Positions 7,308 to 33,989 are shown, counted from the stretch's first letter. The stretch is DNA of 64,000 nt from a virus (IMGVR_UViG_3300014204_000134:1-64000), one strand, 5' to 3'. The notes: generated from the letters alone by a model not told the origin. Translations and numbers: made by a program.

Positions 7308-7559
7308 ATGAATCAATGTTATGATTGTAAAAATAACAAACAGATTGTTAATAATGATAGTTATATGAAACTTAGTTTTAAAGATGCATTATGGTATTAT
7401 GAACGTGGTAAAACAATTGAATGTAGAATATTAAATAATAATGGTGAAATTATTGATTGGGAAAAATACAATATATGTGAAGGATTAAATATAGCTTTAG
7501 AATTTAATGAAATACTAAATGGGCAATGGTATTTAGTTGGTAAAAATATCATTATGTAG
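7308..7559 (+). CDS. hypothetical protein
   Basis: SD AGGGG + ATG. Confidence 0.55.
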   Translation: MNQCYDCKNNKQIVNNDSYMKLSFKDALWYYERGKTIECRILNNNGEIIDWEKYNICEGLNIALEFNEILNGQWYLVGKNIIM

Positions 7560-7592
7560 TATTTAAAGAAATAGAATTATCTATATATAGTA
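7548..7592. promoter_or_regulatory. tandem NrdR-box-like pair
   Basis: ATCATTATGTAGTA (7548, degenerate) and ATCTATATATAGTA (7579), 31-bp period. Confidence 0.5.
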
Positions 7593-7619
7593 TATAAATG
7601 GCAACGAAATTCGCATTTT

Positions 7620-7982
7620 ATGATAGGAGGAAAATTATTGGATAATAAATGTTCTAATGAAGAAATAAATGTTTATTTAAAAAATAGACAAGAATCAGAA
7701 ATTATACAAAAGATAGATAAATTAATGGAAGAAATTGAAAGCAAATTTGATTGTTTTAGTATTATATATTTAGATTACTGGAGAGGAAAAATCATAAAAG
7801 AAATAATGTATCAAAAAGTAAAAGATATACTTAATAAATTTACTCAAAAAGAATTATTAGAATATAATGAAATGGCAAAAATGTTTACAGATAGTAATTG
7901 TTGTTTTAGTTTTTATAATGTTGCACGAATAGTACATACTGAAATTATAAATATTTTATATCCAAAGGAGGTTTTACAATAG
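7620..7982 (+). CDS. hypothetical protein
   Basis: Track ORF; true start is probably the TTG after SD AGGAGG. Confidence 0.6.
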   Translation: MIGGKLLDNKCSNEEINVYLKNRQESEIIQKIDKLMEEIESKFDCFSIIYLDYWRGKIIKEIMYQKVKDILNKFTQKELLEYNEMAKMFTDSNCCFSFYNVARIVHTEIINILYPKEVLQ

Positions 7983-8182
7983 AAAATTTAATATCAAACA
8001 AACGAGTTGAAAGAATGGAAGTATTTTGGAATAGTGATATACCTAAAAAATATAATAGAGATCAATTAATTGAGTTTGCCAGAGATGATATTGAAATTTT
8101 ATTGAGAGAACGAAATGAAATGGCAAAAATATTAGATTTACTTAATGTGATTGAAAATCATTTTAATGGGGAGGAAAAGTAA
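7979..8182 (+). CDS. hypothetical protein (ATA start overlapping upstream TAG)
   Basis: SD AAGGAGG; ATAG overlap; 67 aa. Confidence 0.5.
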   Translation: MENLISNKRVERMEVFWNSDIPKKYNRDQLIEFARDDIEILLRERNEMAKILDLLNVIENHFNGEEK

Positions 8183-8523
8183 TGTTAGAAAAAATATTTA
8201 TTGCAAATTTATACGCTGAAGATAATGATTGGTTAGGAATTAAAAAGTTTAATGATTATCCAACAGAAAAACAAATTTATGATTTTATTAAAGAAAAAAC
8301 TGAAGACGATAAAGATTGCCATGTAGAAATTGCTAAAGGAATCAAATATAAAAAAGACAATAAAATGGATTGTCAGAATTGTAAATTACACATGAAAGAA
8401 ATAGATTATAGTCATAATGAAGTAGGTTGCAGATGTTCTGAAAATAGAGTTGAACATACTTATAGTTGTATTAATCAAAAGGTTAATACAGAAAATTGTG
8501 CTTATTGTAGATTAATAAAATAG
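8182..8523 (+). CDS. hypothetical protein
   Basis: Track ORF, Cys-rich C-terminus. Confidence 0.55.
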   Translation: MLEKIFIANLYAEDNDWLGIKKFNDYPTEKQIYDFIKEKTEDDKDCHVEIAKGIKYKKDNKMDCQNCKLHMKEIDYSHNEVGCRCSENRVEHTYSCINQKVNTENCAYCRLIK

Positions 8524-8541
8524 TCACAAAACCGTAATTTT

Positions 8542-8838
8542 ATGATAGGAGATGATAATATTAATTTAATAAGTATTATTAAAGAAATACAACGTAAAAT
8601 AAAAACATTAGAAAGTGATAGAGATAAAGCAATTAACAGAATCACAAAAGAATATGATAAACAAATTAAAGATTTAAAAACTGCATTGCAAGTAAATTTA
8701 GACATGAATACTACTTGTTTAAAATGTGAAGGGAAAAAATATATAAAAGTGTATTCTGGTATGTATGAAGATAGAGGAACAAATGAAACCTGCGATAGAT
8801 GTAATGGTACTGGTATTGAGCCACCTAAATTGGTATAA
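8542..8838 (+). CDS. coiled-coil protein with DnaJ-type Zn finger
   Basis: CLKCEG...CDRCNGTG. Confidence 0.65.
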   Translation: MIGDDNINLISIIKEIQRKIKTLESDRDKAINRITKEYDKQIKDLKTALQVNLDMNTTCLKCEGKKYIKVYSGMYEDRGTNETCDRCNGTGIEPPKLV

Positions 8839-8867
8839 AAATGTGGTTTTATGATAGGAGAGAAAAT

Positions 8868-9371
8868 ATGATTAAACTAAAACCAACAAATGAATGTGAA
8901 GTTATAGTTGAACCTAAATATGCTGGTAATTATGGCATTTTTAGGATTGGTGGATGTCAAAGAATACCGAAAGAAGAATACAATTTATGTGAGAGCATTA
9001 AAACCGATATAAAAAGACATGTAGATGATGTAGGACAAGTTTATATAAAACAAGAACATCTTTATGAAGTTGATGGTGAGGAATTTGATACTTTATATGA
9101 AGCACTTTTATATAAACATGAACCAGAAGATATAGAGAAAAGTATTTTACCAAAATATTCTTATAGATATAAAAGGCCAAATGATAATTGTGGTAGTTGT
9201 AGTTCTACTAACGATTTCAAAAAAGTAATTGAAGAAGCATATAGAAACCCTTGGGAGTTTAGTGTTAGTAATGCAGAACAAATATTAACTATAGAACAAC
9301 AAAAATTTTTACAGAATGTAATTAATGCAGGACTAGAAGCAAATGGAAGAATTGAATGGATAAAAAATTAA
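8868..9371 (+). CDS. hypothetical protein
   Basis: SD AGGAG in repeat flank + ATG at 8868. Confidence 0.65.
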   Translation: MIKLKPTNECEVIVEPKYAGNYGIFRIGGCQRIPKEEYNLCESIKTDIKRHVDDVGQVYIKQEHLYEVDGEEFDTLYEALLYKHEPEDIEKSILPKYSYRYKRPNDNCGSCSSTNDFKKVIEEAYRNPWEFSVSNAEQILTIEQQKFLQNVINAGLEANGRIEWIKN

Positions 9372-9413
9372 CTTAAAATATCACATTTATACCATTAGAA
9401 AGGAGTAATTAAT

Positions 9414-10061
9414 TTGGATATTAATTTATTTTCAAGAATAGTTAAAAAATTAGGAGATACAAACATTGAAGATTTTGAATGTACAATTGATAGTAAGATT
9501 TATGGATTTAAAGATATAGGAGATAATACATGGGACGATCAAGGTAAATACCAATATAAATATGAACAAGGTCAGTTGATAGAGATGGATAAAAAATATA
9601 ATGAAATACAATCATTTAATTTCGGGGTTTCTCGTACCGTACAAAGAAGCGGTTCATATTTTTCTGATTATTATTACGAACATTATCCTTATGAATATTT
9701 TGAAATTAAAGAAATACTAATACCAGAAAAAATTATTCCTGCACATACAGAAAATCAGTGGAATAAGTTAGTAATTGATTTAAATAATATTGTAGACGAA
9801 GAGGAAGAAGAAAGAAAGAGATTAGAAGCAGAAAAAATAAAATTAGAAGAAGAAGCAAAAGTAGAAAAAGAAAGACTCATTAAACTTTATCCAATGAATA
9901 AACAAGAAATAATTAAGATAGTAAATAAAAATTTAAAGAAAAAAGGAATAAAATTTACAATACAAAATATGAGAAAAGAATATTTTGATATTGTTGTATC
10001 TAAGAATCTTGAAAGTCAGGAATGGATTGATTATCACAAAAGTATATTTGAAAATATGTAA
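9414..10061 (+). CDS. hypothetical phage protein
   Basis: SD AAAGGAG + TTG; 215 aa. Confidence 0.65.
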   Translation: MDINLFSRIVKKLGDTNIEDFECTIDSKIYGFKDIGDNTWDDQGKYQYKYEQGQLIEMDKKYNEIQSFNFGVSRTVQRSGSYFSDYYYEHYPYEYFEIKEILIPEKIIPAHTENQWNKLVIDLNNIVDEEEEERKRLEAEKIKLEEEAKVEKERLIKLYPMNKQEIIKIVNKNLKKKGIKFTIQNMRKEYFDIVVSKNLESQEWIDYHKSIFENM

Positions 10062-10089
10062 TCAAATTCACTTTTTATGGTAGGAGAGA

Positions 10090-10818
10090 ATGATGAATTA
10101 TAAAAGAGAAAAATATCTTTTATTAAAACAATTACATGATGTAGATCTAATAAATGATTTTAAACAAAATAATGTAATAATTGCTGGTGGAGCAATAACA
10201 TCTATTTTTACAAACAATAAAATAAATGATTATGATATTTATTTTCGCAATATAAATGAATATGATTATATAAACAAACTATTGCAAAATAAAGAAGGAT
10301 TTAAAAATATAGTAAGTACCCAATCGGCAGAAACATATAAAAATAATGAAAAGAATATTACAATACAATTAATAAAATTAGAAAGAATGTTATTTGATAA
10401 TCCAGAAGATACAATTAAAGAATTTGACTATAGTGTATGTATGGGAGCATATGATTTCAAAACTGATAACTTTGTATTTGACAAGAATTTTATCAAACAT
10501 AATGCACAAAAAAGATTGATCTATAACCTTAAATGTAAATATCCAATTTGTGCCCTATATCGTTTGAAGAAATATATGAGAAAAGGTTATGAAATATCAG
10601 GAGCAGAATTAATTAAATTGGCACTTGTTGTTCATAAATTAAATCTTAAAACCTATGCAGACCTGAAAGAGCAATTATTGGGTATAGACACTCTGATGCT
10701 AAAAGAATTAACCGAGAAATTAGAAAGCGATGAATATGCCAAAAAAGAATATGATTTTGATGAATTTATGCATATAATTGAAGAATATTTAGATAGATAT
10801 GAAGATATTTTAAGTTAA
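10090..10818 (+). CDS. nucleotidyltransferase-fold phage protein
   Basis: IAGGAITS...INDYDIYF (GG + DxD)...FDYSVC. Confidence 0.7.
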   Translation: MMNYKREKYLLLKQLHDVDLINDFKQNNVIIAGGAITSIFTNNKINDYDIYFRNINEYDYINKLLQNKEGFKNIVSTQSAETYKNNEKNITIQLIKLERMLFDNPEDTIKEFDYSVCMGAYDFKTDNFVFDKNFIKHNAQKRLIYNLKCKYPICALYRLKKYMRKGYEISGAELIKLALVVHKLNLKTYADLKEQLLGIDTLMLKELTEKLESDEYAKKEYDFDEFMHIIEEYLDRYEDILS

Positions 10819-10828
10819 GGAGATAAAT

Positions 10829-11089
10829 ATGAAAAGAAAAATAACTATAATCTGTGGAGATAGAGGTTATTATGAAATCGAAGATCTTACTGAACAATAT
10901 AATGATTTGCTTTGTACTGATATGACCGAAGAAGAAGTAGATAAATATTTTGCCCCTGGTAAATATGACGGAAAAGATAATGGTACTTATGCTTATGCAT
11001 TTATAGAATGTCTTTGTCAAAGTGATTATTGTCCACCATATTTATTTGATGGTGATGATATGAAAGTTATTGTAGAAATTGTTGAGTAA
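10829..11089 (+). CDS. acidic hypothetical protein
   Basis: SD AAGGAG + ATG. Confidence 0.55.
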   Translation: MKRKITIICGDRGYYEIEDLTEQYNDLLCTDMTEEEVDKYFAPGKYDGKDNGTYAYAFIECLCQSDYCPPYLFDGDDMKVIVEIVE

Positions 11090-11129
11090 TGAAACACGTA
11101 TTTTGTGCTAATAAGTAGGAGGTAATACT

Positions 11130-11342
11130 ATACTTAAAATAAACACAATTGTTAACAAGGGTGGAGAAAGAAAAGAACTATCTAAAATTAAAGATTTTAA
11201 TTGTACTAATTGTGGAAATGATAGTTTTTTATTGACTTGTAAAATAAAAATTATTAAATTAGGTAATGATGAAAATTTGAGAATTAAAGCAATGTACCCT
11301 AAATGTAGTATATGTGGAACTGAATTTCCTGAAGTATTTTAA
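11130..11342 (+). CDS. Zn-ribbon protein (ATA start, not in track)
   Basis: SD AGGAGG; CTNCG...CSICG; in-frame TAA at 11112. Confidence 0.6.
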   Translation: MLKINTIVNKGGERKELSKIKDFNCTNCGNDSFLLTCKIKIIKLGNDENLRIKAMYPKCSICGTEFPEVF

Positions 11343-11356
11343 TAGTAGGAGGCATA

Positions 11357-11578
11357 ATGAACTTACAAATAATAGAAGCGGTAAGGTGTAAAGGGATATT
11401 AACGCAAGTTAGTACATGTTTGAGGTGTCAGTATTTCGTTACTAGAGATGAAATATTGGGACAAATTGAATGTAGAAATGAAAATAAAAAATATAGCAGG
11501 GAAGAACATATTAAAAAATGTAAAGAATTTTATGGTAATAAAATTATAGAGTTTGGTGATATTGATGAAAAACCGTAA
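11357..11578 (+). CDS. hypothetical protein
   Basis: SD AGGAGG + ATG. Confidence 0.55.
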   Translation: MNLQIIEAVRCKGILTQVSTCLRCQYFVTRDEILGQIECRNENKKYSREEHIKKCKEFYGNKIIEFGDIDEKP

Positions 11579-12047
11579 ATGCCACTTCTGTAAAATGGAA
11601 GATAGTGAAATTAATCTTATTAGAGTTGAAGTTGGAGATAAAACTAAATTAAAAAAATATGCACATCAAGAATGTTATAAAAATTATTTGAACAGGAAAG
11701 AATTTTTTAGTTATTTGCATGAAGCACTAGACATACCAAAATTAGATAGATGGACAGTTATGAATATAAATAGTATTGGTCAGGACTATTCTTATGAGGT
11801 CATGTTACATGCTTTAAAGGTGAAAGAAAAGGTGATGTTGGAGAAATTTGGAAAAGGGTTCCCATACATTTTGGCTATTTTAAAAAATCAACTTCCGTTT
11901 TCATATAAGGAAATAAAAAGGCAGCAAAGAGAAAAAGAACTACAACAACATAAAACTAATAATAATTCTTTTTCATATGAAGAATTACCAGAAACAGAAT
12001 ACAAACAAAAGGAAGGTAGACTTGACATATCTAATCTTCTAGATTAG
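11553..12047 (+). CDS. replication-module protein (possible helicase partner)
   Basis: CHFC...HQEC Zn motif; directly upstream of helicase. Confidence 0.55.
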   Translation: MVILMKNRKCHFCKMEDSEINLIRVEVGDKTKLKKYAHQECYKNYLNRKEFFSYLHEALDIPKLDRWTVMNINSIGQDYSYEVMLHALKVKEKVMLEKFGKGFPYILAILKNQLPFSYKEIKRQQREKELQQHKTNNNSFSYEELPETEYKQKEGRLDISNLLD

Positions 12048-12059
12048 AGAGGTGAATTA

Positions 12060-13577: not shown

Positions 13578-13602
13578 AATTTAGACAAGAAGGGGTTGAT
13601 TC

Positions 13603-14682: not shown

Positions 14683-14692
14683 AATATAAACC

Positions 14693-14721
14693 TTGACAAA
14701 ATTAGTAAAATATGATATAAT
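14693..14721 (+). promoter_or_regulatory. sigma-A type promoter
   Basis: TTGACA-17 nt-TATAAT with extended TG. Confidence 0.8.
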
Positions 14722-14915
14722 GCAGGTATGTTTCTATAAAGGAGTGATAAATATCGCACATAAACAAAATAATATTATTAGTAGTTTAATTAATCTCTTA
14801 GTACTAGCATTTATTACTATTAACGCACTATTACTAGCAATATCAGTTACGGGATTAAATTATAAATTCTTTAAATATATTTTTCCTGGTATTAATTATT
14901 AAAGAAGGTGATTAG

Positions 14916-16556: not shown

Positions 16557-18755
16557 ATAGAATTCAATGAAAACATCATAGACTTACTTAAAAAAAGATA
16601 TTTTCTAAAAGATGAAAATGGTAATCTAATAGAAAATTCCTGGGAAGATATATGTAAAAGAGTATCAATAAATATTGCTAGTGCCGAAAAAACAGAAGAA
16701 TTACAAAATACATATGAAAAAATATTTTATGATAAAATGGTTAATTTAGAGTTCATTCCTTCTTCACCTACACTTTTTAATGCAGGAACTACACTTCAAC
16801 AATTATCTTCATGTTTTATTATTGATATTGAAGATAGTATGGAAGGTATAGCCGAAGCATGGAAAGAATGTTCTATAATCTTTAAAAGTGGAGGAGGAGC
16901 AGGATTTAATACAAGTAAAATTAGACCTAAAGGAACATTAGTAAGTACATCGAATGGAGAAGCATCAGGTGTTGTTTCTTTTATGACAATTTTTGATCAA
17001 ATTGTTGAAATTATTAAACAAGGGGGCAAAAGAAAAGGAGCACTAAAAATAGATTTAAATGAAAACCATCCAGAAATATTCGAATTTATACATTGTAAAG
17101 ATACTGATGGAATGCTAAAAAATATGAATATTTCTGTTTCAATTTCAGATAAATTTATGAATGCATTAATAAATGATGAAAATGTAAATTTAGAATTTAA
17201 TGGAACCGTTTATAAAACAATAAAAGCAAAAGATTTATGGGATGAAATAATTAATTCATCATGGAAATCAGGAGAACCAGGAATTAGTTTTAGAGATATA
17301 ATGAATGATGATAATAAAAATTCACATTTAGGTGAAATAAATAGTTCAAACCCTTGCCAAGAATTCGTTAATATACCATATTCTTCTTGTAATTTGGGTT
17401 CAATTAATTTAGAAAAAATTATAAAAGATAAGAAAATTGATTATAAATTACTTGAAGAAAATATACGAGTTGCAATAAGATTTTTAGACAATATGATAAC
17501 TGTTAATAAATTGCCGTTAAAAAAGATTGATGAAATTACTAAATTAATTAGACCTGTTGGATTGGGAACAATTGGATATGCAAATTTACTATTTTTATTA
17601 GAAATACCTTACAATTCAAAACAAGCATATAAAGTTACTGATAAATTATATGAATTTATAAAAAATATTGCAATAGATGAAAGTAAAAAATTAGCTGAAG
17701 AAAAAGGTATATATCCTGCATGGGAAGGTTCCATATGGCAAAAAGAAGATATTAAAATAAGAAATTGTAATCATATTAGTATTGCTCCTAATGGAAGTAT
17801 CGGTTTCATAGCAGATTCTACAGGTGGAATAGAATCTGAATACGCATTAGTTTATTATAGAACCACAAATGAAGGAACTAAATACTTTGTAGTAAATAAA
17901 ATATTTAAAGAAAAACTAAAGGAAATAAATTTATATACAGATGAATTATTACAAAAAATAGTAGATAATAATGGTTCTATTCAAAATATTGAAGAAATAC
18001 CTAGTAATATTCGTAAAGTATTTATTGTTTCTCATGATTTAACACCCAACGAACATTTAAAAACTTTATCAATAATAAATAAACATGTTGATCTTAGTAT
18101 TTCAAAAACGATCAATTTATCAAATTCCGCAACAAAAGAAGAAATAAGTGAAATTTATATTGAAGCATGGAAAAATAATATTAAAGGTGTTACTGTTTAT
18201 AGAGATGGTTCAAGAAAAAATCAGGTATTAAGTACTTCACAAAATAAAGATAATAAAATAAATAATTTACCTAGAGGTTATATATTACCTGCTTTAACTG
18301 AAACAAAAGGACATAGGATTAAATTGTCTACTGGTTGTGGTAATTTATGGTTAATGGTATTCACAGATGAAAATAATGATATTGTAGAAACATTCGTTAA
18401 TACTGGCAGTAAAGGAGGATGTACAATTTCTACTCAGGCAATGAGTAGATTAATGAGTTTATCATTAAGAGGTGGTATTTCATTTGAGGACGTAGTAGAT
18501 CAATTAGAAAGTGCTGGTAGTTGTCCTTCTTATCAATTTGCAAGAGGAAATGGAAGTAAAATAAGTTCTGGAAAATCATGTCCTAGTGCAATAGCAAAAG
18601 CACTTGAAAAATTGCAGAAAAAATTAAAGAAAGGAGAACAAATTAATACAATTGAAATAGAAGAAGAATTAAAATGTCCTGAATGTAATACAAAATTAAG
18701 ATTTATTGAAGGATGTAATCAATGTCCCAATTGTGGTTTTAGCAAATGTAATTAA
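16557..18755 (+). CDS. nrdJ: class II (B12-dependent) ribonucleotide reductase, ATA start
   Basis: LLKKRYFLKD N-terminus upstream of track ATG; SPTLFNAG, SSCF, NPCQE, KGVTVYRDGSR, TSCPD-like domain and C-terminal Zn ribbon; in-frame TGA at 16548. Confidence 0.85.
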   Translation: MEFNENIIDLLKKRYFLKDENGNLIENSWEDICKRVSINIASAEKTEELQNTYEKIFYDKMVNLEFIPSSPTLFNAGTTLQQLSSCFIIDIEDSMEGIAEAWKECSIIFKSGGGAGFNTSKIRPKGTLVSTSNGEASGVVSFMTIFDQIVEIIKQGGKRKGALKIDLNENHPEIFEFIHCKDTDGMLKNMNISVSISDKFMNALINDENVNLEFNGTVYKTIKAKDLWDEIINSSWKSGEPGISFRDIMNDDNKNSHLGEINSSNPCQEFVNIPYSSCNLGSINLEKIIKDKKIDYKLLEENIRVAIRFLDNMITVNKLPLKKIDEITKLIRPVGLGTIGYANLLFLLEIPYNSKQAYKVTDKLYEFIKNIAIDESKKLAEEKGIYPAWEGSIWQKEDIKIRNCNHISIAPNGSIGFIADSTGGIESEYALVYYRTTNEGTKYFVVNKIFKEKLKEINLYTDELLQKIVDNNGSIQNIEEIPSNIRKVFIVSHDLTPNEHLKTLSIINKHVDLSISKTINLSNSATKEEISEIYIEAWKNNIKGVTVYRDGSRKNQVLSTSQNKDNKINNLPRGYILPALTETKGHRIKLSTGCGNLWLMVFTDENNDIVETFVNTGSKGGCTISTQAMSRLMSLSLRGGISFEDVVDQLESAGSCPSYQFARGNGSKISSGKSCPSAIAKALEKLQKKLKKGEQINTIEIEEELKCPECNTKLRFIEGCNQCPNCGFSKCN

Positions 18756-19900: not shown

Positions 19901-20497
19901 ATGGCAAAATTTTATATAGTTAATACAAGGGATGAAAGAAATAACAATACATATTATTATATTGCATTTAAAGATAAAGATGATGATGAAATATGTTGCA
20001 CAGAAGCAGTTGCAGAAGAATTTAGTATTCCTGTAGATGAATATCTTAATATATGTAAAAAGAACGGTTCAATAGGAATTAAAAATTTAACTAACTATAA
20101 TGACTTATTTTGTTCAGTAGAACAAGCTCAAAATGCTATACAAGAAATTCTAGAATTTAGTATTGAATTTAATAAAAATAATTGTTGTTGTAATTGCGAA
20201 GAAGACTATTCTGATATTACACCAACTTATCCGCAGGATTTTGTATCCGATGGAGAAGAGATTAGTAACGAACAAATAAACGAAATTATTGAAATGTGTA
20301 TTTATAATCTAGAACAAGATGATGAAGCAGATGGTGTAGACATAACTGAAGGAAATACACTTATTTTAGTTAATAGAAGCCGTATGTGTGATGATCCTGA
20401 ATGTGAAGGACACAATGATTATTATTATAAAGTAACAGTTTGTAAAGGTATTTATGAATATAGTGGTATTGATGATTATAATTTAGAAGACGAATAA
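19901..20497 (+). CDS. acidic Cys-containing hypothetical protein
   Basis: SD AAGGAGG + ATG. Confidence 0.65.
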   Translation: MAKFYIVNTRDERNNNTYYYIAFKDKDDDEICCTEAVAEEFSIPVDEYLNICKKNGSIGIKNLTNYNDLFCSVEQAQNAIQEILEFSIEFNKNNCCCNCEEDYSDITPTYPQDFVSDGEEISNEQINEIIEMCIYNLEQDDEADGVDITEGNTLILVNRSRMCDDPECEGHNDYYYKVTVCKGIYEYSGIDDYNLEDE

Positions 20498-20504
20498 TTA
20501 CATA

Positions 20505-20538
20505 GATTGTGCTAGGGACTAACCTCTCTAGCACAATC
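20505..20538. terminator. stem-loop (probable terminator)
   Basis: GATTGTGCTAG...CTAGCACAATC. Confidence 0.6.
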
Positions 20539-20542
20539 AACA

Positions 20543-20587
20543 CACCATATATTGTGTTTATATATAAAAATAAAACTACATATAGTA
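20543..20587. promoter_or_regulatory. tandem NrdR-box-like pair
   Basis: CACCATATATTGTG (20543) and AACTACATATAGTA (20574), 31-bp period. Confidence 0.6.
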
Positions 20588-20626
20588 TAGGCAATGAAAC
20601 AGTGGTTTCGTGAGAGGAGAAAATTA

Positions 20627-21148
20627 ATGAATAAAATAATGATATTGAAAAGTGGTTCCCCTGCTTTACATAAATTGGGTGATATAGGTAGGGAAGTAGA
20701 CGATTTAATTAGAGTACATTCAGAAACAGAAGAATATTATATTGGTAGTTTTGAAGAAGGTCTTGGATTTATTGATGTTAAGTTTAAAAAAGAAGACTGT
20801 AGACCGCTAACAGAAGAAGAGAGAAAAGATTTAAATGGTAAATGGTATGGTATTAATGGTATGCCTTTATATAGAATTTACGTTGATGAACAAGGTAATG
20901 TTGTAAAAGGAAAATATATCATGAAAAAAGGTACAATTACTAAAGTTACTGACCAAATAGGAGAAGATAAGTCATCTAATTTTATTGGATTAAATGTTGA
21001 ATTTTATGAGGATATTACTATTGATCAAAGTTTGGTAATGTTTATTGGTGATAAATGTATTACAACTTCTAAAGTAGTTAATGTTGAAATTACTGAAAAT
21101 ACTTATGTGATATATACTAAAAATAGTATTTATTATATATCAATATAG
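20627..21148 (+). CDS. hypothetical protein
   Basis: SD GAGGAG + ATG at 20627. Confidence 0.65.
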   Translation: MNKIMILKSGSPALHKLGDIGREVDDLIRVHSETEEYYIGSFEEGLGFIDVKFKKEDCRPLTEEERKDLNGKWYGINGMPLYRIYVDEQGNVVKGKYIMKKGTITKVTDQIGEDKSSNFIGLNVEFYEDITIDQSLVMFIGDKCITTSKVVNVEITENTYVIYTKNSIYYISI

Positions 21149-23622: not shown

Positions 23623-24303
23623 ATAAATAAATTTAATTTTAATAATATTATAATAAAACAAATACCTAATTCAGAAGCAAAGAAAATTATTAAAAAATAT
23701 CATTATACACACACTTGTTCTAAAGCTACAATATCACTAGCGTTTTATTATAATAATCAACTATGTACAGTAATAGTTTATGGTCAACCAACTGGTAAAT
23801 ATTTAGCATCTTCTATATGGGAAGGTGGTAATGAAAAAGAATGTACGGAATTGTTAAGATTATTTTCTTTTGATTGGTGTCCTAAAAATATTGAAAGTTA
23901 TTGTATTGCACAAAGTATTAAATTCTTAAAAACAAATTATCCAAAAATAAAAATATTAGTATCTTACGCAGATGCTAGTGTGGGCCATGTAGGTTACATT
24001 TATCAAGCAAGTAATTGGTTATACATAGGAAATTCTAGTCCTGAACCAGAAATATTTATAGACAATATAAAAAGACACAGAAGAGATTTATATGATAAAT
24101 ATGGTACATCTAGTATTAAAAAATTAAAAGATATTTTAGGTGAAAAATTACAAATAGGAAAGAAAAATAAAAAATATAAATATATATACATATTAGGTAA
24201 TTCTAAAAAAGAACATAAAGAATTAATAATTAAATTAAAAGTAAAAATAATAAATGATTATCCAAAAGGAGACTTAAATTATTATAACATCAATGCATCC
24301 TAA
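23623..24303 (+). CDS. Mom-like adenine-modification (GNAT-fold) protein, ATA start
   Basis: EAKKIIKKYHY, ELLRL, ESYCI, SYAD...GHVGYIYQASNWLYIG; SD AGGAGTG. Confidence 0.8.
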   Translation: MNKFNFNNIIIKQIPNSEAKKIIKKYHYTHTCSKATISLAFYYNNQLCTVIVYGQPTGKYLASSIWEGGNEKECTELLRLFSFDWCPKNIESYCIAQSIKFLKTNYPKIKILVSYADASVGHVGYIYQASNWLYIGNSSPEPEIFIDNIKRHRRDLYDKYGTSSIKKLKDILGEKLQIGKKNKKYKYIYILGNSKKEHKELIIKLKVKIINDYPKGDLNYYNINAS

Positions 24304-24348
24304 TACTACATATAGTATTAAACAACAAATTAACATCTATATATAGTA
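24304..24348. promoter_or_regulatory. tandem NrdR-box-like pair
   Basis: TACTACATATAGTA (24304) and ATCTATATATAGTA (24335), 31-bp period. Confidence 0.6.
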
Positions 24349-24391
24349 TATTATTGGCAATAAAAACACAATTTTATGATAGGGAGAATAT

Positions 24392-24748
24392 ATGTATAAT
24401 TTAAATGAAGTTGTTGATTTCATAGAAAATAAATATAAATTTAAATTATTAGAATATCAAAAAGAAATGCTTGATTATATAATTAAAGGATATACTTTTA
24501 GTTGTCCTGTACGTTCTGGTAGAAAAATGATATTAAATGGTTTTGTAGACTATCTTAAAGAAATACATGGTAAACACATAGATGGTTTTAAAGCACAAAA
24601 ACATTTTTCACTTGAGACAGTTATGAAAGAGAATAATTGGTATGAAGAAAGATTAAAAGAATTACAAAATAATAATATAAAATTTGAAACAGAATATCAG
24701 TGTGAATGGTTAGATAATAAATATTTAAAAGAAACAAATAAGGAGTGA
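24392..24748 (+). CDS. hypothetical protein with terminase-ATPase-like motifs
   Basis: KLLEYQ...RSGRK...FETEYQCEW. Confidence 0.55.
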   Translation: MYNLNEVVDFIENKYKFKLLEYQKEMLDYIIKGYTFSCPVRSGRKMILNGFVDYLKEIHGKHIDGFKAQKHFSLETVMKENNWYEERLKELQNNNIKFETEYQCEWLDNKYLKETNKE

Positions 24749-25233
24749 TAAATATACTGCAAAATATACTTAAAAAAGGACATCCTATATTTGGTAAACC
24801 TGCCGAATCTGTAAAACCAAGAGTAATACTTAGTAGTTATATAAAAAATATTATTGCTGAAATGAGTGCAACAATAGATAAACAACAAGTAACTTTTAAA
24901 CATCAAATAGTAGGTCTAACAGCAAATCAAATTGGATATCCGGTAAGAATCATTTGTTTAAATACTGATTCAAAAATATTTATGATTAATCCTGCAATAG
25001 AAAAAGAAAAAGGAAAACAAATAAGTTTAGAGGGTTGCGGAAGTGTCGATGGCGTATTATGTGAAGTTGAAAGACCAAAATATATTGAAGTACATTTTTA
25101 TGATGAAAATGGCGAAGATTGGTGTGGTGAGTTTACTGATTTAAATGCTTGGGTAGTAGAGCATGAAATTGATCATTTAGACGGAATATTTATTACTGAT
25201 AAAGCAATAAGAATAATTAAATTAGAAGATTAA
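24745..25233 (+). CDS. def: peptide deformylase
   Basis: VGLTANQIG, INP, EGCGS, EHEIDHLDG. Confidence 0.9.
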   Translation: MINILQNILKKGHPIFGKPAESVKPRVILSSYIKNIIAEMSATIDKQQVTFKHQIVGLTANQIGYPVRIICLNTDSKIFMINPAIEKEKGKQISLEGCGSVDGVLCEVERPKYIEVHFYDENGEDWCGEFTDLNAWVVEHEIDHLDGIFITDKAIRIIKLED

Positions 25234-25520: not shown

Positions 25521-25532
25521 GAAGGTGGTAAT

Positions 25533-25877: not shown

Positions 25878-25906
25878 AATATAGTTTTATAGAAGGAGAA
25901 ATTAAT

Positions 25907-26089: not shown

Positions 26090-26120
26090 TAAATGCAATC
26101 ATTTATGCTAGGAGGTTCCT

Positions 26121-26745: not shown

Positions 26746-26757
26746 TAAAAATGAGAT

Positions 26758-28031: not shown

Positions 28032-28042
28032 GGAGGATCTTA

Positions 28043-28546: not shown

Positions 28547-28580
28547 TAGTAATGAAAGAAAAGTTTTATGGGAGGAAGAT

Positions 28581-28805
28581 TTGATGAATAATTTTTGTAA
28601 TAAAGATTATACAGATTACGAAAAACTTAAAATGTTATTTAATGAATTTGGTATTAATTATGATAGTTATATTGAAAACAATAAACATATAATAAGTTTA
28701 CAAGCACCAGACAAAAAAGGTAAAATAAATGGCTATATTGGTTTTACAGCTATATTTAATTTTAATCAACATGATAAATTTTTAGATGTTGGCATATGGG
28801 AATAA
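28581..28805 (+). CDS. hypothetical protein
   Basis: SD GGGAGG in repeat flank; between two repeat sites. Confidence 0.55.
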   Translation: MMNNFCNKDYTDYEKLKMLFNEFGINYDSYIENNKHIISLQAPDKKGKINGYIGFTAIFNFNQHDKFLDVGIWE

Positions 28806-28832
28806 AAGATACATTTTAAAGGAGTTGATATA

Positions 28833-29126
28833 ATGGCAATAGGTGAATCACAAAATTGTAACACATGTAAATATAGATGGATGACTCAACTGAATTTTAA
28901 TTCTTCCCATGCACCAATAGGAGCATATGAAGCAGATTGTCATTGTGAAATTTGTACACTAATTAAAACTTATAAAAATGCATTAGATTTCGAATCTAAA
29001 ATCAAAGAAAACTTAAAACAACAAATCAAAGACTATATCTACAAACATAAACACCACGCAATGTATTATGATGATGAAGGTAGTTTAGGAGCGCAAAGTT
29101 TGTTGGATTATTTAGAATTGCTTTAG
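28833..29126 (+). CDS. hypothetical protein
   Basis: SD AAAGGAG + ATG. Confidence 0.55.
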   Translation: MAIGESQNCNTCKYRWMTQLNFNSSHAPIGAYEADCHCEICTLIKTYKNALDFESKIKENLKQQIKDYIYKHKHHAMYYDDEGSLGAQSLLDYLELL

Positions 29127-29138
29127 GAAGGTGGTATA

Positions 29139-29486
29139 ATCCTCTTACAAGTCTATACTGCTCAAATAAAATATACTAACCTAAACAAAATTACAAATAA
29201 TCCAGATTATTTAATTCTTGACCAAAACAAAATTTTTTCACCTGTCAGGGGTATCATACTAGGACGTAAAAACGGTAGATTGTCAGATAAACAATTTAAG
29301 CAAATGTATTATGATTTTCTTAAAGAGAGTTATGAAACTAATAAAGAAGAATTTAATTATTTATTGAATAAAGAGAAAATAATAATAGCAAGTAATTCTT
29401 ATTATTACGAATACGCAGATAGAGTATTACTTGCTAAATTTCTTGAAAAACTTGGTGCTGAAATAAAAGGAGAGATTACTATTTGA
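29139..29486 (+). CDS. DUF488-like protein (ATA/ATC start)
   Basis: LQVYTAQ...FSP...GRLSDKQFKQMY...R.LLAKFL; frame open from TAG at 29124. Confidence 0.5.
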   Translation: MLLQVYTAQIKYTNLNKITNNPDYLILDQNKIFSPVRGIILGRKNGRLSDKQFKQMYYDFLKESYETNKEEFNYLLNKEKIIIASNSYYYEYADRVLLAKFLEKLGAEIKGEITI

Positions 29487-29585
29487 ATCAATATGTACCA
29501 ATTAGTATGATGATAATATTTATAATTTGTATGTTTATTACATATAAATTAATGTTTAAATAAAAGGCAACAAAATTTTAGTTTT

Positions 29586-30395
29586 ATGGTAGTAAAGGAA
29601 GTGAAATTAATATTAGATATAAATAAAATATATAATATGAATTGTTTAGAAGGAATGAAATTAATTGATGATAAATCAATTGATATGATATTGTGTGATC
29701 TCCCTTATGGCACTACTGCTTGTAGTTGGGATATTATAATACCATTTAAACCCTTATGGGAACAATATGAAAGAATTATAAAAGATAATGGAACAATATT
29801 ATTATTTGGAAGTGAACCATTTTCGTCATTATTAAGAATTAGTAATTTAAAATTATATAAATATGATTGGATTTGGGAAAAGGGTAGAGCAAGTGGTTTT
29901 GTTCATGCAAAAAATAAACCATTAAAAGCACATGAAAATATATCAGTTTTTTCAAAAGGTACTACAGTACATAAAAATCAATCAAAAAATAGAATGATTT
30001 ATAATCCTCAAATGGAAAAAGGAAAACCATATATAAAGAAAATAACTCAAATAAATACAGGAAAATTAAACCACGAACCATCTGAAGCAAATATAAATTT
30101 TGTTGGAACTATTAATAAGAACAATGGAACAAGATACCCAAGAAGTGTAATTAAATTTTCAATACATAATGTAGGAAATATACATCCAACACAAAAACCA
30201 ATTAATTTATGTGAATATCTAATTAATACATATACTAACGAAAATAAATTAGTCTTAGACAATTGTATGGGAAGCGGAACAACGGCAATTGCATGTATTA
30301 ACACAAATCGAAATTACATAGGTTTTGAGTTAGACACTATATATTGTGATTTAGCAAATAAAAGAATACTAGATGTAGTAGGTAGGGTATTATAA
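29586..30395 (+). CDS. beta-class N4-C/N6-A DNA methyltransferase
   Basis: DCLEGM-like start, DLPY, HPTQKP, DNCMGSGTT. Confidence 0.9.
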   Translation: MVVKEVKLILDINKIYNMNCLEGMKLIDDKSIDMILCDLPYGTTACSWDIIIPFKPLWEQYERIIKDNGTILLFGSEPFSSLLRISNLKLYKYDWIWEKGRASGFVHAKNKPLKAHENISVFSKGTTVHKNQSKNRMIYNPQMEKGKPYIKKITQINTGKLNHEPSEANINFVGTINKNNGTRYPRSVIKFSIHNVGNIHPTQKPINLCEYLINTYTNENKLVLDNCMGSGTTAIACINTNRNYIGFELDTIYCDLANKRILDVVGRVL

Positions 30396-30426
30396 AAATT
30401 CCGTTTTATAGAAAGTGGTAAATTAA

Positions 30427-30807
30427 ATGAAAGAAACAAAAATTAAAGAATTGACTGAAATAAAATGTTTATGTTGCGGATCAAGGGAATTATCTAAACA
30501 TCATGAAACTAGTTACAGCTTAATAGTTTTCCAATGTTCTAAATGTAAATTATTTATACATGCCAATAAAATGTGTTGTTATTATAAAATTTACGCTATG
30601 CCAAGACATACAAATTATTGGGTAGATTGCGGTGATGCAAGTTCTGATTGTGTAGTGTGTGGTGGATTAGCAACAATTAAAAGAGGTAATATTGACAAAT
30701 CAGAATGGGCAAACAGTTGTCGTATTTGTAATGCTAATATACATGTTGATAATTGCGGAGGTTTTTATGAAAAGTATTGTCCAGAGTGTAAAAAATATAT
30801 GGAATAA
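30427..30807 (+). CDS. Cys-rich Zn-binding hypothetical protein
   Basis: Multiple CxxC; between repeat sites. Confidence 0.6.
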   Translation: MKETKIKELTEIKCLCCGSRELSKHHETSYSLIVFQCSKCKLFIHANKMCCYYKIYAMPRHTNYWVDCGDASSDCVVCGGLATIKRGNIDKSEWANSCRICNANIHVDNCGGFYEKYCPECKKYME

Positions 30808-30841
30808 AAAATTTGATTTATGACCAGGAAAGGATAATAAA

Positions 30842-31219
30842 ATGAAACAAAAATATTATGAAAAACAAATTAGTGTAGGTTCTCCTGAACAATATTATTG
30901 GAATGGTATGAAAAAAGATGATAGACAACCAAAATGGAAAGAAGAACGTAAAAAGTATGGTTTTGATGAAAGAGAAACTTGGAGTTTAGAATTTACTTTT
31001 ATTGCATGGATTTATCCAAGATTAAAGATGTATCGTGAAATTGACGTAGGACATCCAATGGATTTCACTAAAGAACAATGGAATGAAATTATTGATGAAA
31101 TGATAGAAGGTTTTGAGTTATATTTGACAGCACAAAATATTTATGATGAAAAAGTAAATGAAAAAGTAGAGAAATCTTTTGATTTATTTAGAGAATATAT
31201 AAAATGTATATGGTGGTAA
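30842..31219 (+). CDS. hypothetical phage protein
   Basis: GFDERETWSL...WNEIIDEMIEGF; between repeat sites. Confidence 0.65.
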   Translation: MKQKYYEKQISVGSPEQYYWNGMKKDDRQPKWKEERKKYGFDERETWSLEFTFIAWIYPRLKMYREIDVGHPMDFTKEQWNEIIDEMIEGFELYLTAQNIYDEKVNEKVEKSFDLFREYIKCIWW

Positions 31220-31241
31220 CGAAATTACGCTTTTGTAATAG

Positions 31242-31583
31242 GTGGTGAATAATATAAAACCAAATTATATTTTCTTTTATAAAAATGATATTGCACTTGA
31301 CGACATTATAAAACATGCTCCATTCTTTTACGATGAACCAATTCAAATAAAAAGAGGTAAAAATGAAGCAAGATTTGAATATGAACATTTTGATTTAAGA
31401 TGTTATAAAATAAAAAATTTAAATTTATCAATGAGAGGTATTAAAACTTGGCAAATTCTTATAGAAGATGAATTATATGATGAAATTAGTCATGAAATAA
31501 TTTATACAGTATTAGCACCAATGATGGTTCCTTATGAACTATTAGGTGGGAGAATCATTAAAGTAAATAAATATACATCATAA
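31242..31583 (+). CDS. hypothetical protein
   Basis: SMRGIKTWQILIEDE...VLAPM; between repeat sites. Confidence 0.55.
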   Translation: MVNNIKPNYIFFYKNDIALDDIIKHAPFFYDEPIQIKRGKNEARFEYEHFDLRCYKIKNLNLSMRGIKTWQILIEDELYDEISHEIIYTVLAPMMVPYELLGGRIIKVNKYTS

Positions 31584-31626
31584 AAACTGCATTTTATAAC
31601 TATTTAAAATTAAGGAGGAATAAATA

Positions 31627-31980
31627 ATGGGATTAACAACAGATAGAAATCATCCAGATTTAGGATATGGGGCAGACGATAAACCAGTAGAACAAAACAA
31701 AGTATATTTGGTTTTATCAGATGAAGAACTTTCTAAAGGTTATGTTAAACCATATCGTACTAGTTATAAACATTTGACATGTGGCACAATTACAACAATG
31801 AATGAAAAGATATCTGCTACTTATGCAAAAGATCCTTGGTTTTATGGATCAACTTATTGTGTCTATTGTAGTATGCATAGACCCCTTATTGAATTTACAT
31901 GGGAACCAGATGGTGAATCAATGAATCCTAACGAATGGTCAGATGAAGAAATGGATAGAGTTATAGGGTTAAAGAAATAG
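31627..31980 (+). CDS. Zn-binding hypothetical protein
   Basis: HLTCG...TYCVYC...H; SD AAGGAGG. Confidence 0.65.
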   Translation: MGLTTDRNHPDLGYGADDKPVEQNKVYLVLSDEELSKGYVKPYRTSYKHLTCGTITTMNEKISATYAKDPWFYGSTYCVYCSMHRPLIEFTWEPDGESMNPNEWSDEEMDRVIGLKK

Positions 31981-32022
31981 AAAAAGAAAGAATAAAATAT
32001 GCGTTTGATGTTAAGTGAGGAG

Positions 32023-32193
32023 ATGTTTATGAGAGATATATTAAAAACTAAAGAAGAAAAAATTCAGTTTATTATTGGGCACTTACAAAGAATGAAAGGG
32101 TTAGAATTTATTGATCACGATGAAATTAGTGCTTGTAATTTAGCAATAAGAAGATTAAAAAGAACTTTGCCTAAAGAGAAAATATTATCATAA
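32023..32193 (+). CDS. hypothetical protein
   Basis: SD GAGGAG; between repeat sites. Confidence 0.45.
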   Translation: MFMRDILKTKEEKIQFIIGHLQRMKGLEFIDHDEISACNLAIRRLKRTLPKEKILS

Positions 32194-32229
32194 AAAATGT
32201 GTGCTTTATAACCATAAAAGGAGAATAAT

Positions 32230-32502
32230 ATGTTTAAAAAATTACTAGAAATATTAGAATTACAAATAAAAGAACTAGAGATGAAAATGGAAATTTTAAA
32301 TGAAATAGATATTGAAAAACAATGGCATTTAGAAACAGGTAAAAAATTTAATAATTTAATGAGTAATTATGCAATATCAGAAGAAGAGTTACTTTCTATT
32401 TCTGAAACAGTATGTAAATTTGTAACTATTACTAGGAAAACCAATATAGATAAATATTTATTTGAAGATGATAAATTAGAAAAACCAAGATTAATAAGGT
32501 AA
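32230..32502 (+). CDS. hypothetical protein
   Basis: SD AAGGAG + ATG; between repeat sites. Confidence 0.55.
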   Translation: MFKKLLEILELQIKELEMKMEILNEIDIEKQWHLETGKKFNNLMSNYAISEEELLSISETVCKFVTITRKTNIDKYLFEDDKLEKPRLIR

Positions 32503-32548
32503 CTAAATTTGGTTTTTATTACCATAGAAAGGAAAAAATAAATATAAA

Positions 32549-32875
32549 ATGAAAGCAAAAATTATAAAAGTATCTAAACCTACATTTTGGTATGTAAATA
32601 AAATAGGAAAAATATTTGAAGTATGTGATGATGACCACTTATTTTATAAAGTATTAAACATTCCAAACACCTACATTTTAAGAGAAGATTGTATAATAAT
32701 TGAAAATAAAGTAGAAATGTATGATTTTAAATGGAAACAATTACATAATAAAACTTTAAAAATATATGTTGGGGAAGACTTAACTAATGGTACTGATTAT
32801 ACTTGTATAACTACTATAGGTGTTGATGTTGATACTGGAGATATGTATTTTTTAAACAACGAAATAATTAAATAG
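32549..32875 (+). CDS. hypothetical protein
   Basis: Track ORF. Confidence 0.55.
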   Translation: MKAKIIKVSKPTFWYVNKIGKIFEVCDDDHLFYKVLNIPNTYILREDCIIIENKVEMYDFKWKQLHNKTLKIYVGEDLTNGTDYTCITTIGVDVDTGDMYFLNNEIIK

Positions 32876-32887
32876 TAGGAGGATAAA

Positions 32888-33085
32888 ATGGATTATTCAA
32901 ACGACAGATTTATATTTACATTTAGTAATAATTGGAAATATAAACAATTTTCTTTAGGTTTTACTTTTGCTAGTGAAGAACGTTTTACTTGTTCTGATGA
33001 AACTGTTGGAATAACTAAGAAAAGAGAATATTATATCGGTTTATATTTAGGATTTTGGCAACTATTTGTTGGAGTAGTAATATGA
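32888..33085 (+). CDS. hypothetical protein
   Basis: SD AGGAGG + ATG. Confidence 0.5.
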   Translation: MDYSNDRFIFTFSNNWKYKQFSLGFTFASEERFTCSDETVGITKKREYYIGLYLGFWQLFVGVVI

Positions 33086-33348
33086 TTAAAATAGTTGAAT
33101 TCCATCACCCAATTGACAATCCACACGAATATCAATGTAGAATAATTAAATATGAAAGTTTTGAAAAATACGCTAACGATTTAGAAAATGGAGAAGCGCA
33201 ATATTTAGGACAATATTCTTTACCTAGAATTTTAAATATTGAATGGGATTTTAATATATTTGATAATTATGTAATAGTTAAATATATTCATCCTATTAAT
33301 CATTTAAAAATTATACATAAAGCATGGATAGTAAATATAGATTTGTAG
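33082..33348 (+). CDS. hypothetical protein
   Basis: ATGA overlap with upstream ORF. Confidence 0.5.
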   Translation: MIKIVEFHHPIDNPHEYQCRIIKYESFEKYANDLENGEAQYLGQYSLPRILNIEWDFNIFDNYVIVKYIHPINHLKIIHKAWIVNIDL

Positions 33349-33403
33349 TAATAAAATCTAATTTCTATACCACTATAGAAATATAAAATAAAGGAGATAA
33401 TTA

Positions 33404-33940
33404 ATGACTTGTATTGCAGGACTTGTAGATAATGGAATAGTTTACATAGGTGGAGATAGTGCAGGAGTAGGAGGAACATCACTTTCTGTACGTGCAGATA
33501 AAAAAGTATTTCAAAATGGTGAATTTATTTTTGGATTTACCACTTCTTTTAGAATGGGACAATTATTAAGATATTCATTTAATCCTCCTAAGAATTATGA
33601 AAATATTGACATTAATAAATTTATGGTTACTAAATTTATCGAATCAGTTAGAAAATGTTTAAAGGATGGTGGATATGCTTATAAAAACAACGAAGTCGAA
33701 GAAGGTGGAACCTTTTTAGTTGGTTACAAAGGAAAATTATTTAGAATTGATTCTGATTATCAAGTAGGAGAAGCATTAATAGAATTTGATGCTGTTGGAT
33801 GTGGAGAAGACATTGCCCTTGGTTCATTATATAGTACTCAAGGACTAGAACCTAAAGAAAGAATATTAAAAGCACTTGAAGCAGCAGAAAGGTTTAGTGC
33901 TGGAGTAAGAAGACCATTTAATGTGGTTGAATTGAAATAA
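33404..33940 (+). CDS. HslV/proteasome-beta-like Ntn-hydrolase
   Basis: N-terminal M-TCIAGL, GGDS, KVF, AVGCG...ALG. Confidence 0.75.
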   Translation: MTCIAGLVDNGIVYIGGDSAGVGGTSLSVRADKKVFQNGEFIFGFTTSFRMGQLLRYSFNPPKNYENIDINKFMVTKFIESVRKCLKDGGYAYKNNEVEEGGTFLVGYKGKLFRIDSDYQVGEALIEFDAVGCGEDIALGSLYSTQGLEPKERILKALEAAERFSAGVRRPFNVVELK

Positions 33941-33944
33941 GACA

Positions 33945-33989
33945 TACTATATATAGTATAATTAGATTTATATAATACTATATATAGAT
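33945..33989. promoter_or_regulatory. tandem NrdR-box-like pair
   Basis: TACTATATATAGTA (33945) and TACTATATATAGAT (33976), 31-bp period. Confidence 0.6.

Follow-up and report, generated by a model that had tools for sequence, protein, structure and literature searches.

Why would a phage carry paired boxes of the kind bound by NrdR, a bacterial repressor of ribonucleotide reductase (RNR) genes, in front of genes other than its own RNR gene? The question arises from a 64,000-nucleotide stretch of DNA (the window) that forms the first 64 kb of a 100,452-bp viral record (IMGVR_UViG_3300014204_000134). NrdR is a zinc-ribbon/ATP-cone repressor that recognizes a pair of 16-bp boxes facing the same side of the double helix. 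A first-pass annotation of the window had described four NrdR-box-like pairs with an exact 31-bp period and had noted that none preceded the phage RNR gene, nrdJ. Both statements held. Taken as 16-mers, the four pairs begin at 7547/7578, 20542/20573, 24303/24334, and 33944/33975, each with a 15-bp linker, and there is no pair between 16400 and 16740, ahead of nrdJ, where the best lone 16-mer scores 5/6. We consider it probable that the pairs are operators for the NrdR of the host, which would repress or block phage operons when deoxyadenosine triphosphate (dATP) is plentiful, and that they perhaps also titrate NrdR.

To characterize the pairs, we relied on the published definition of NrdR sites. 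These consist of two partly palindromic 16-bp boxes separated by a linker of 15 to 16 bp, with positions C4, A6, A8, T9, T11, and G13 highly conserved; binding needs both boxes, and the sequence of the linker is free (PMC13584703). The box consensus has been quoted as acaCwAtATaTwGtg (PMC4009431), and the definition of a pair also admits linkers of 25 to 27 bp. We scored the record with the six conserved positions and the 15- to 16-bp linker alone, leaving the consensus of the first-pass annotation unused. Five pairs with periods of 31 to 32 bp scored 12/12, whereas 100 Markov-1 random genomes gave 0.03 such pairs on average and 2 at most, and the scores are thus not those of TA-rich background. 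The remaining pair (7547/7578) scored 11/12. Eleven of the 12 boxes matched all six conserved positions, while the box at 7547 is degenerate, with four mismatches to the 12-mer ACTAYATATAGT and 5/6 conserved positions kept. Five pairs had a 15-bp linker, and the linker of the other measured 16 bp. In the histogram of spacings there was a peak of six pairs at 31 bp and no more than three at every other spacing. With one mismatch or fewer, ACTAYATATAGT occurred 17 times on both strands compared to 1.78 expected, a count reached by none of 100 shuffles, and the pair pattern with up to two mismatches gave five pairs in the phage genome, while the reversed pattern gave none. The four pairs described at first therefore stand, but the total is larger, as two had been missed: one at 30334/30366 and one beyond the window at genome positions 73310/73341.

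7547-7593, unstranded: site 1, box 1 TATCATTATGTAGTAT (5/6), 15-bp linker, box 2 TATCTATATATAGTAT (6/6)
20542-20588, unstranded: site 2, boxes ACACCATATATTGTGT and AAACTACATATAGTAT, 15-bp linker, both 6/6
24303-24349, unstranded: site 3, boxes ATACTACATATAGTAT and CATCTATATATAGTAT, 15-bp linker, both 6/6
30334-30381, unstranded: additional site, boxes ACACTATATATTGTGA and ATACTAGATGTAGTAG, 32-bp period, 16-bp linker, both 6/6
33944-33990, unstranded: site 4, boxes ATACTATATATAGTAT and ATACTATATATAGATA, 15-bp linker, both 6/6; ATACTATATATAGTAT (33944-33959) is a perfect 16-bp palindrome
Genome 73310-73356, outside the window, minus strand: sixth pair, TAACTATATGTAGTGT / ATACTACATATAGTAT

The phage pairs thus show every published sequence feature of NrdR sites. 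To compare them with bacterial operators, we scanned a collection of bacterial species with CTAYATRTAG-N21-CTAYATRTAG and obtained at least 120 loci, 80 of which had 2-kb flanks and were examined. An outward open reading frame (ORF) of at least 80 amino acids lay within 600 nt at 71 of the 80, and 110 ORFs were compared with Pfam; 19 ORFs from the 40 loci with short flanks were set aside. Genes related to RNR adjoined 34 of the 80 loci (20 NrdD, eight class I/II large subunits, two NrdR, and four NrdI). The other 46 included two families of dispersed repeats from two metagenome-assembled genomes (MAGs), three genes of the cyclic-oligonucleotide-based antiphage signaling system (CBASS), a deoxynucleoside kinase, and assorted unrelated genes. 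The nrdJ promoter of Clostridium carboxidivorans carries ATACTACATATAGTAT and ATACTATATATAGTAT, identical to phage boxes, and similar pairs of the same ATAC...GTAT form precede nrdJ of C. ganghwense and C. rhizosphaerae and a Clostridium nrdE. Overall, promoters of Clostridium nrdJ, nrdD, and nrdE had these boxes at the phage spacing. In the nrdJ and nrdE operators, box 2 ends 8 to 16 nt 5' of the ribosome-binding site (RBS), as it does in front of one phage gene, a Xer-like recombinase gene described below. Agreement extends to positions 1 to 3, which lie outside the search pattern. Their base frequencies are A.62, T.50/C.31, and A.92 in RNR sites of low-GC bacteria; A.52, T.53/C.39, and A.92 in viral sites; and A.71, T.54, and A.83 in this phage. 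In sequence, then, the phage pairs are indistinguishable from the RNR operators of Clostridium, and it is this identity of the boxes that argues for their being NrdR operators. To our knowledge, no other regulator uses this palindrome with this spacing.

The placement of the pairs is fixed as well. Each precedes a gene oriented away from the pair, and the stop codon of the gene before it is close by or overlaps the pair. At site 1, the stop codon of the upstream ORF (7308-7559) falls within box 1. Site 3 abuts the stop codon of a Mom-like gene (23851-24303), site 4 starts 4 nt past that of an HslV-like gene (33404-33940), and the pair at 30334/30366 lies within the last 62 nt of a DNA methyltransferase ORF (29586-30395). 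At the four sites with an assignable start, 38 to 45 nt separate the end of box 2 from the start codon. Box 2 is usually followed by a TAnnnT hexamer, (T)GGCAAY, a small hairpin of the form RGAAA-N6-TTTCY, and a strong RBS. The first-pass annotation had placed a "cassette site" 6 to 11 bp after each pair; an element is indeed present after box 2, but (T)GGCAAYRAAA starts 3 to 9 bp past the 12-mer. We read this element as the putative 5' arm of the small leader hairpin.

7599-7640, plus strand: leader of site 1, TGGCAAC; hairpin arms 7604-7609 / 7616-7621 (ACGAAA / TTTTAT); RBS GGAGG at 7626-7630; probable start TTG at 7638
20590-20629, plus strand: leader of site 2, GGCAAT; hairpin arms 20594-20599 / 20606-20611 (ATGAAA / TTTCGT); RBS GAGGAG; ATG at 20627
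24355-24394, plus strand: leader of site 3, TGGCAAT; hairpin arms 24360-24365 / 24372-24377 (ATAAAA / TTTTAT); RBS GGGAG; ATG at 24392
30392-30429, plus strand: leader of the additional site, hairpin ATAAAA-attccg-TTTTAT (30392-30409); weak RBS; ATG at 30427
33991-34588, plus strand: transcription unit after site 4, -10-like TAAAAT, GGTAAT, RBS AAAGGAG near 34028

The first downstream genes had no Pfam or PHROGs family: the ORFs that follow site 1 (to 7982), site 2 (to 21148), and the additional site (to 30807) have no assigned function, nor does the first gene after site 3, which is followed by a peptide deformylase gene (24745-25233). After site 4, the first gene encodes an HNH endonuclease (34040-34588 from stop to stop, 182 codons). 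There is no ATG, GTG, or TTG near its RBS, so the gene may start at an ATA codon at 34046. A nucleoside 2-deoxyribosyltransferase gene (34585-34923), a second HNH gene, and the gene for a DnaE-type polymerase (35791-38970) lie farther downstream. At the sixth pair (locus L001, in which positions 9310-9356 correspond to genome 73310-73356), box 2 ends about 10 nt 5' of the RBS of the gene for a 329-amino-acid Xer-like tyrosine recombinase (L001 8314-9303, minus strand), and box 1 has a hairpin (ATGAAA-gatggc-TTTTAT) on its upstream side.

The leader hairpin has a core of four to six A/U-rich pairs and no U tract. Covariation across 76 leaders gives the hairpin modest support: paired cells made up 80.6%, compared to 77.9% in shuffles, and cells changed on both sides numbered 26, compared to 15.2, and none of 500 shuffles reached 26. 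Part of this leader also occurs elsewhere. The motif TTTATGATAGG, with one mismatch or fewer, was found on the plus strand of the window at 754, 2497, 7617, 8539, 8848, 10074, 24373, 26102, and 26758, in each case as the 3' arm of a short A/U hairpin that runs into the RBS. Two of these nine early genes lie behind box pairs. Because the other seven have no boxes, the hairpin-plus-RBS motif is an element apart from them; it is what the first-pass annotation called the cassette site, and it may serve the phage as a signal for translation initiation or RNA processing. Among related viruses, the same leader precedes unrelated genes: 21 distinct proteins in 13 homology clusters for one family of leaders (A), and 19 proteins in nine clusters for another (B). 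The suggestion that the box pair travels as a noncoding unit is therefore supported in part. Box pair and leader hairpin together appear to be a portable unit placed before unrelated genes; we saw no evidence of site-specific cassette recombination.

Just ahead of site 2, between the stop codon of the ORF at 19901-20497 and box 1, we also observed an 11-bp perfect inverted repeat, GATTGTGCTAG ... CTAGCACAATC (20505-20515 / 20528-20538), with a 12-nt loop and no T tract.

The pair pattern is widespread among viruses. In viral contigs we found at least 115 loci at 31 bp and at least 117 at 32 bp, compared to six at the out-of-phase spacing of 36 bp. All 28 of the records that we examined closely (mostly complete genomes of 130 to 200 kb) held one to five pairs with two mismatches or fewer, and the reversed pattern was absent from all 28. 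The highest number, five, occurred in this phage and one other; most relatives had one to three. Relationship between the carriers and this phage is remote: the large terminase was 21 to 45% identical to that of this phage in 17 of 27 records and was undetected in the other 10, which makes a shared host factor a simpler explanation than a shared phage regulator. Among 94 distinct ORFs flanking 80 viral loci, four were DNA methyltransferases and most had no assigned function; two of 41 viral flanking ORFs scanned with Pfam were Tad4 Thoeris inhibitors. Some relatives have a run of three boxes in register (31 + 31 bp), the outermost of which is degenerate (G008:C1:123405-123476, and similarly G004, G007, G023, G030, G032, G040, G043, and G048).

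Among cultured phages, the only example seen was an intergenic pair in Bacillus phage Tsamsa (KC481682, approximately 76485-76533; L249 586-634), which has a 17-bp linker, precedes gp168, and is followed by a hairpin (ATAAAA-tccata-TTTTAT), AGGAGGG, and ATG. The stretch CTAGATGTAGTAGGTAG is common to this pair and the window pair at 30366. We rejected the idea that the pair at 30334/30366 is a coding coincidence shared with Tsamsa, because the Tsamsa pair is intergenic and the neighboring genes are unrelated. Across the Tsamsa genome, the box was at background (38 matches versus 36). A megablast search with the region, together with blastn searches with the modules of two relatives, returned as carrier one uncultured fecal phage only.

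Does the phage bring its own NrdR? No NrdR, NrdR zinc ribbon, or ATP-cone was found in this record, and none of 50 related viral records held a protein above the TIGR00244 cutoff. The 29 weak TIGR00244 matches lay in long open frames and resembled the ATP-cones of RNR genes. For the Zn_ribbon_NrdR family, none of 28 records exceeded the cutoff (best scores, 11.8 to 13.3 bits), and we rejected one weak match, a 91-amino-acid CxxC protein, since it lacks the DSR and RRRR motifs of NrdR. The host is the more plausible source. A full NrdR was encoded in all five Clostridia genomes with matching operators, and NrdR is present in most bacteria, where it has been described as an RNR-specific repressor; it binds DNA as a tetramer that carries dATP and ATP, at boxes that lie upstream of the transcription start and overlap it (PMC9110341). 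NrdRs from four species in three phyla bound consensus pairs with spacers of 14 to 17 or 24 to 27 bp (PMC12051234). Given this distribution and this breadth of binding, the phage pairs would be expected to be occupied by dATP-loaded NrdR.

Several results weigh against control by host NrdR. The 340 bp ahead of the phage's own nrdJ contain no pair, no RNR gene occurred among the 94 viral flanking ORFs, and the ATP-cone RNR genes of six relatives had no pair within approximately 1.5 kb. Promoters are also hard to place. RNR promoters of Firmicutes have a -35 hexamer directly next to box 1, and the linker opens with the -10 hexamer. In the phage modules, each of the two boxes is followed by a -10-like hexamer, but box 1 has no clear -35 hexamer beside it, and a scan with the sigma-70 consensus found 96 sites compared to 110 in shuffled sequence. 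There was no pair in the cultured relatives FADO, vB_BcoS-136, PK-3, and pCD1602_4, and SPbeta showed no box enrichment (10 matches versus 22 for the control). When the terminase was used to look for a host, none of the 399 Clostridia genomes scored had a relative of it, and the sequencing runs that hold the phage DNA are two metagenomes, from landfill and groundwater, with no RNA run listed. The absence of RNR genes beside viral pairs and of a demonstrable promoter leaves room for a phage-encoded binder or a decoy role.

We nevertheless favor host NrdR as the binder, and phage co-option of its operator for non-RNR genes as the best explanation of the boxes. Through six NrdR-type pairs before its own genes, it is probable that the phage monitors or sequesters the deoxynucleoside triphosphate (dNTP) sensor of its host. 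Binding by NrdR, repression as its effect, the position of the transcription start, and the meaning for the phage are all predicted from sequence in what follows. The six operators would head co-oriented gene blocks of the early and replication region, plus the Xer-like recombinase gene. When dATP is plentiful, NrdR would occupy the pairs and either cover a promoter that lies within the pair or immediately downstream of it, or act as a roadblock to transcription from upstream. A drop in dATP, caused by phage DNA synthesis or by a nucleotide-depleting stress, would release NrdR and allow the gene blocks to be expressed. Replicating phage DNA could also draw NrdR off the RNR promoters of the host, since phage operators would outnumber those of a whole Clostridium chromosome. 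With five pairs per 0.1 Mb in the phage, compared to seven pairs per 20.7 Mb in five Clostridia genomes, operator density is approximately 150-fold higher, which makes titration during replication plausible as an added effect.

We hold a broader version of this reading more tentatively, at somewhat less than even chances. Many large phages, distant from one another and with Firmicute-type RBSs, may have wired early, accessory, and replication operons to host NrdR by means of the portable operator-plus-leader cassette, with expression triggered by a fall in dATP and the operators stripping NrdR from host RNR promoters. As part of the same joint reading, the cassette would be a replication-coupled timing device built wholly from a host repressor, and the phage the first virus seen to hijack NrdR.

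Among the alternatives, it is unlikely that a phage-encoded dimeric regulator of an unrecognized family binds the palindromes cooperatively, with the likeness to NrdR boxes a product of convergence or mimicry. The model for such a regulator is SPbeta, a large temperate siphophage in which approximately ten early promoters carry repeated SPBRE operators that keep lytic genes silent, and in which 10 MrpR peaks coincide with SPBRE promoters (PMC10516654). Phage repressors typically act on repeated operators that head early operons, and one of our pairs precedes a gene with the tyrosine-recombinase fold, which MrpR shares; the absence of RNR genes beside viral pairs fits as well, and because the record is only approximately 69% complete, the regulator gene could be missing from it. 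Against this stand the lack of box enrichment in SPbeta, the great divergence of the carriers, and the absence of an NrdR-like zinc ribbon above the cutoff in 28 records. Consensus pairs would in any case be expected to attract NrdR, as NrdRs from three phyla bind such pairs. The Xer-like protein itself makes a poor candidate. In its alignment to XerC/XerA, the HxxR and LGH..Y motifs are apparently kept, and it has no close relative in the viral contigs collection. Its homologs in Tsamsa-like phages are 52% identical, yet box counts in Tsamsa are at background, and the gap before the Tsamsa Xer-like gene is only 9 bp. On these grounds we rejected the protein as the box binder. The analogy to SPBRE and MrpR was also rejected, as SPbeta is without the boxes and MrpR is absent from the PDB matches of the Xer-like protein.

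It is quite unlikely that the pairs are mainly decoys, which would soak up NrdR as the phage genome multiplies, de-repress the RNR operons of the host, and raise the supply of dNTPs. The high operator density agrees with such a role, as do the relatives with three boxes in register and the phage RNR, which has neither boxes nor an ATP-cone and would escape both controls. But the fixed place of the pairs, after a stop codon and 38 to 45 nt from a start codon, with a leader conserved across divergent phages, argues for action in cis, and the one to three pairs of most relatives are few for a sponge.

Very little speaks for AT-rich promoter elements or structural DNA, such as -10-like TATA runs or bent DNA, that would be used without NrdR, and we regard this as highly improbable. 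The genome is 26% G+C, TATAGT and TATATA hexamers occur in the boxes, and TAnnnT follows box 2. However, the strict C4 and G13 and a phase-specific spacing of 31 to 32 bp are not promoter features, and the reversed-pattern control was empty in all 28 records. Scans for sigma factor sites were at background; for sigma-54, there were 39 matches compared to 36.7 expected, and none lay at the modules.

The least credible alternative is that the pairs are recombination sites of the Xer-like or serine recombinase that mark cassette ends, for although the same module precedes unrelated genes in relatives and one pair adjoins the Xer-like gene, the pairs are 16-bp palindromes 31 bp apart and not two arms around a 6- to 8-bp spacer, they lie only on the 5' side of a gene block and not as direct repeats at both ends of a gene, and Tsamsa keeps the recombinase gene with an unenriched box and a single pair far from that gene. 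Core sites of tyrosine recombinases (dif- or lox-like) consist of two inverted arms around a center of 6 to 8 bp. The earlier proposal that the boxes govern site-specific "cassette recombination" is unsupported for the same reasons: they lack the architecture of a recombinase core, and homologs of the Xer-like protein occur in phages without boxes.

How do the phage modules relate to known systems? Host-NrdR operators in front of phage genes would share with bacterial RNR operators (Clostridium nrdJ/nrdD, Streptomyces coelicolor nrdRJ, and E. coli nrdAB/nrdHIEF/nrdDG) the box pairs, the conserved positions, the linker, and the tight placement before the RBS. They differ in that they are not at RNR genes, number six per 100 kb rather than one to three per genome, have no -35 hexamer at box 1, are mostly joined to a leader hairpin, and would answer to a regulator that the carrier does not encode. 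The NrdR box of Pseudomonas aeruginosa topA is a precedent for NrdR acting on a non-RNR promoter, through a single box and with activation as the reported effect (PMC4409342). The topA site is a single chromosomal box, whereas the phage sites are canonical pairs. In T4-type phages, promoter-early/stem-loop (PeSL) cassettes are mobile regulatory elements of the variable early region that combine an early sigma-70 promoter with a terminator stem-loop and precede unrelated small genes. Like PeSLs, the phage unit is short and conserved, includes a stem-loop, and is repeated before unrelated, variable ORFs. Unlike PeSLs, its conserved part is a putative operator for a host repressor and not only an early promoter; its hairpin is a weak A/U stem between operator and RBS and appears not to be a terminator; and its hosts use Firmicute-type RBSs. 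The resemblance to SPBRE and MrpR lies in repeated operators at the early promoters of a large temperate siphophage. But SPBRE has another sequence, 15 bp long, and its binder is encoded by the phage itself; MrpR is an inactive repressor with a recombinase fold, whereas the recombinase-fold protein of this phage shows HxxR and LGH..Y. Our search of the literature, which did not extend to subscription journals, including the original 2005 regulon paper, found no paper describing NrdR boxes on phages, and the word "phage" was absent from three recent papers on NrdR binding sites (PMC13584703, PMC12051234, and PMC9110341).

The record as a whole, annotated with PHROGs and Pfam, is that of a large temperate siphophage. 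It is classed as linear, and the completeness estimate is that of CheckV. A plus-strand block from 1 to 43 kb contains small genes without assigned function along with genes for a DnaB-like helicase, a primase, RecJ, a dUTPase, DNA methyltransferases, a Mom-like protein, a peptide deformylase, several HNH endonucleases, the DnaE-type polymerase, and a serine integrase. The RNR gene of this block (nrdJ, 16737-18755) is of class II type and has no ATP-cone. Genes for tail, head, and lysis functions, among them one for a tape measure protein of 3413 amino acids, form a minus-strand block. By polymerase and recombinase, the nearest cultured relatives are Tsamsa-like Bacillus phages and one Clostridioides phage, at approximately 47 to 52% identity. 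There was no Rfam family in the window. We also noted a perfect sigma-A consensus promoter on the plus strand at 14693-14721 (TTGACA, 17 nt, TATAAT, and an upstream TG; 12/12), just 3' of the primase gene and upstream of RecJ, RNR, and dUTPase, which may drive nrdJ. Just downstream of the Xer-like gene lies a ToxN-family gene (L001 7317-8024, minus strand; genome 71317-72024; Pfam 4e-39), beside which there are 3.1 perfect copies of a 33-nt tandem repeat (L001 7916-8018). Together they are probably a type III toxin-antitoxin (ToxIN-like) module, and because the repeats extend into the beginning of the ORF as listed, its true start is probably later.

The bacterial scan yielded observations of its own. 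Three of the 80 flanked loci (L140, L182, and L149) had CBASS genes directly downstream of NrdR-type pairs: two CD-NTase genes, in a Bathymodiolus endosymbiont and a Propionivibrio MAG, and one SAVED effector gene in Roseomonas. Antiphage CBASS may be tied to the dATP sensor. A Granulosicoccaceae MAG and a Peptostreptococcales MAG each held many copies of one near-identical pair, as dispersed repeats that mimic or carry NrdR-type pairs (L144, L163, L168, L169, L179, L180, L188, L199, and L230; L172, L193, L198, and L203). In Fonsibacter MAGs, which are freshwater relatives of SAR11 (L138, L204, L214, and L237), pairs were flanked by an ABC-2 transporter gene on one side and gcrA, a cell-cycle regulator gene, on the other.

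If the phage pairs do act as operators for host NrdR, this repressor would have a second, large regulon on mobile DNA. Phages would have a simple way to read the dNTP and energy state of the host and to time their middle genes to DNA replication, and there would be a mechanism by which replicating phage DNA raises dNTP synthesis in the host. Genes under such control in relatives would include those for Tad4 Thoeris inhibitors and DNA methyltransferases, and the trigger could be a nucleotide-depleting defense.

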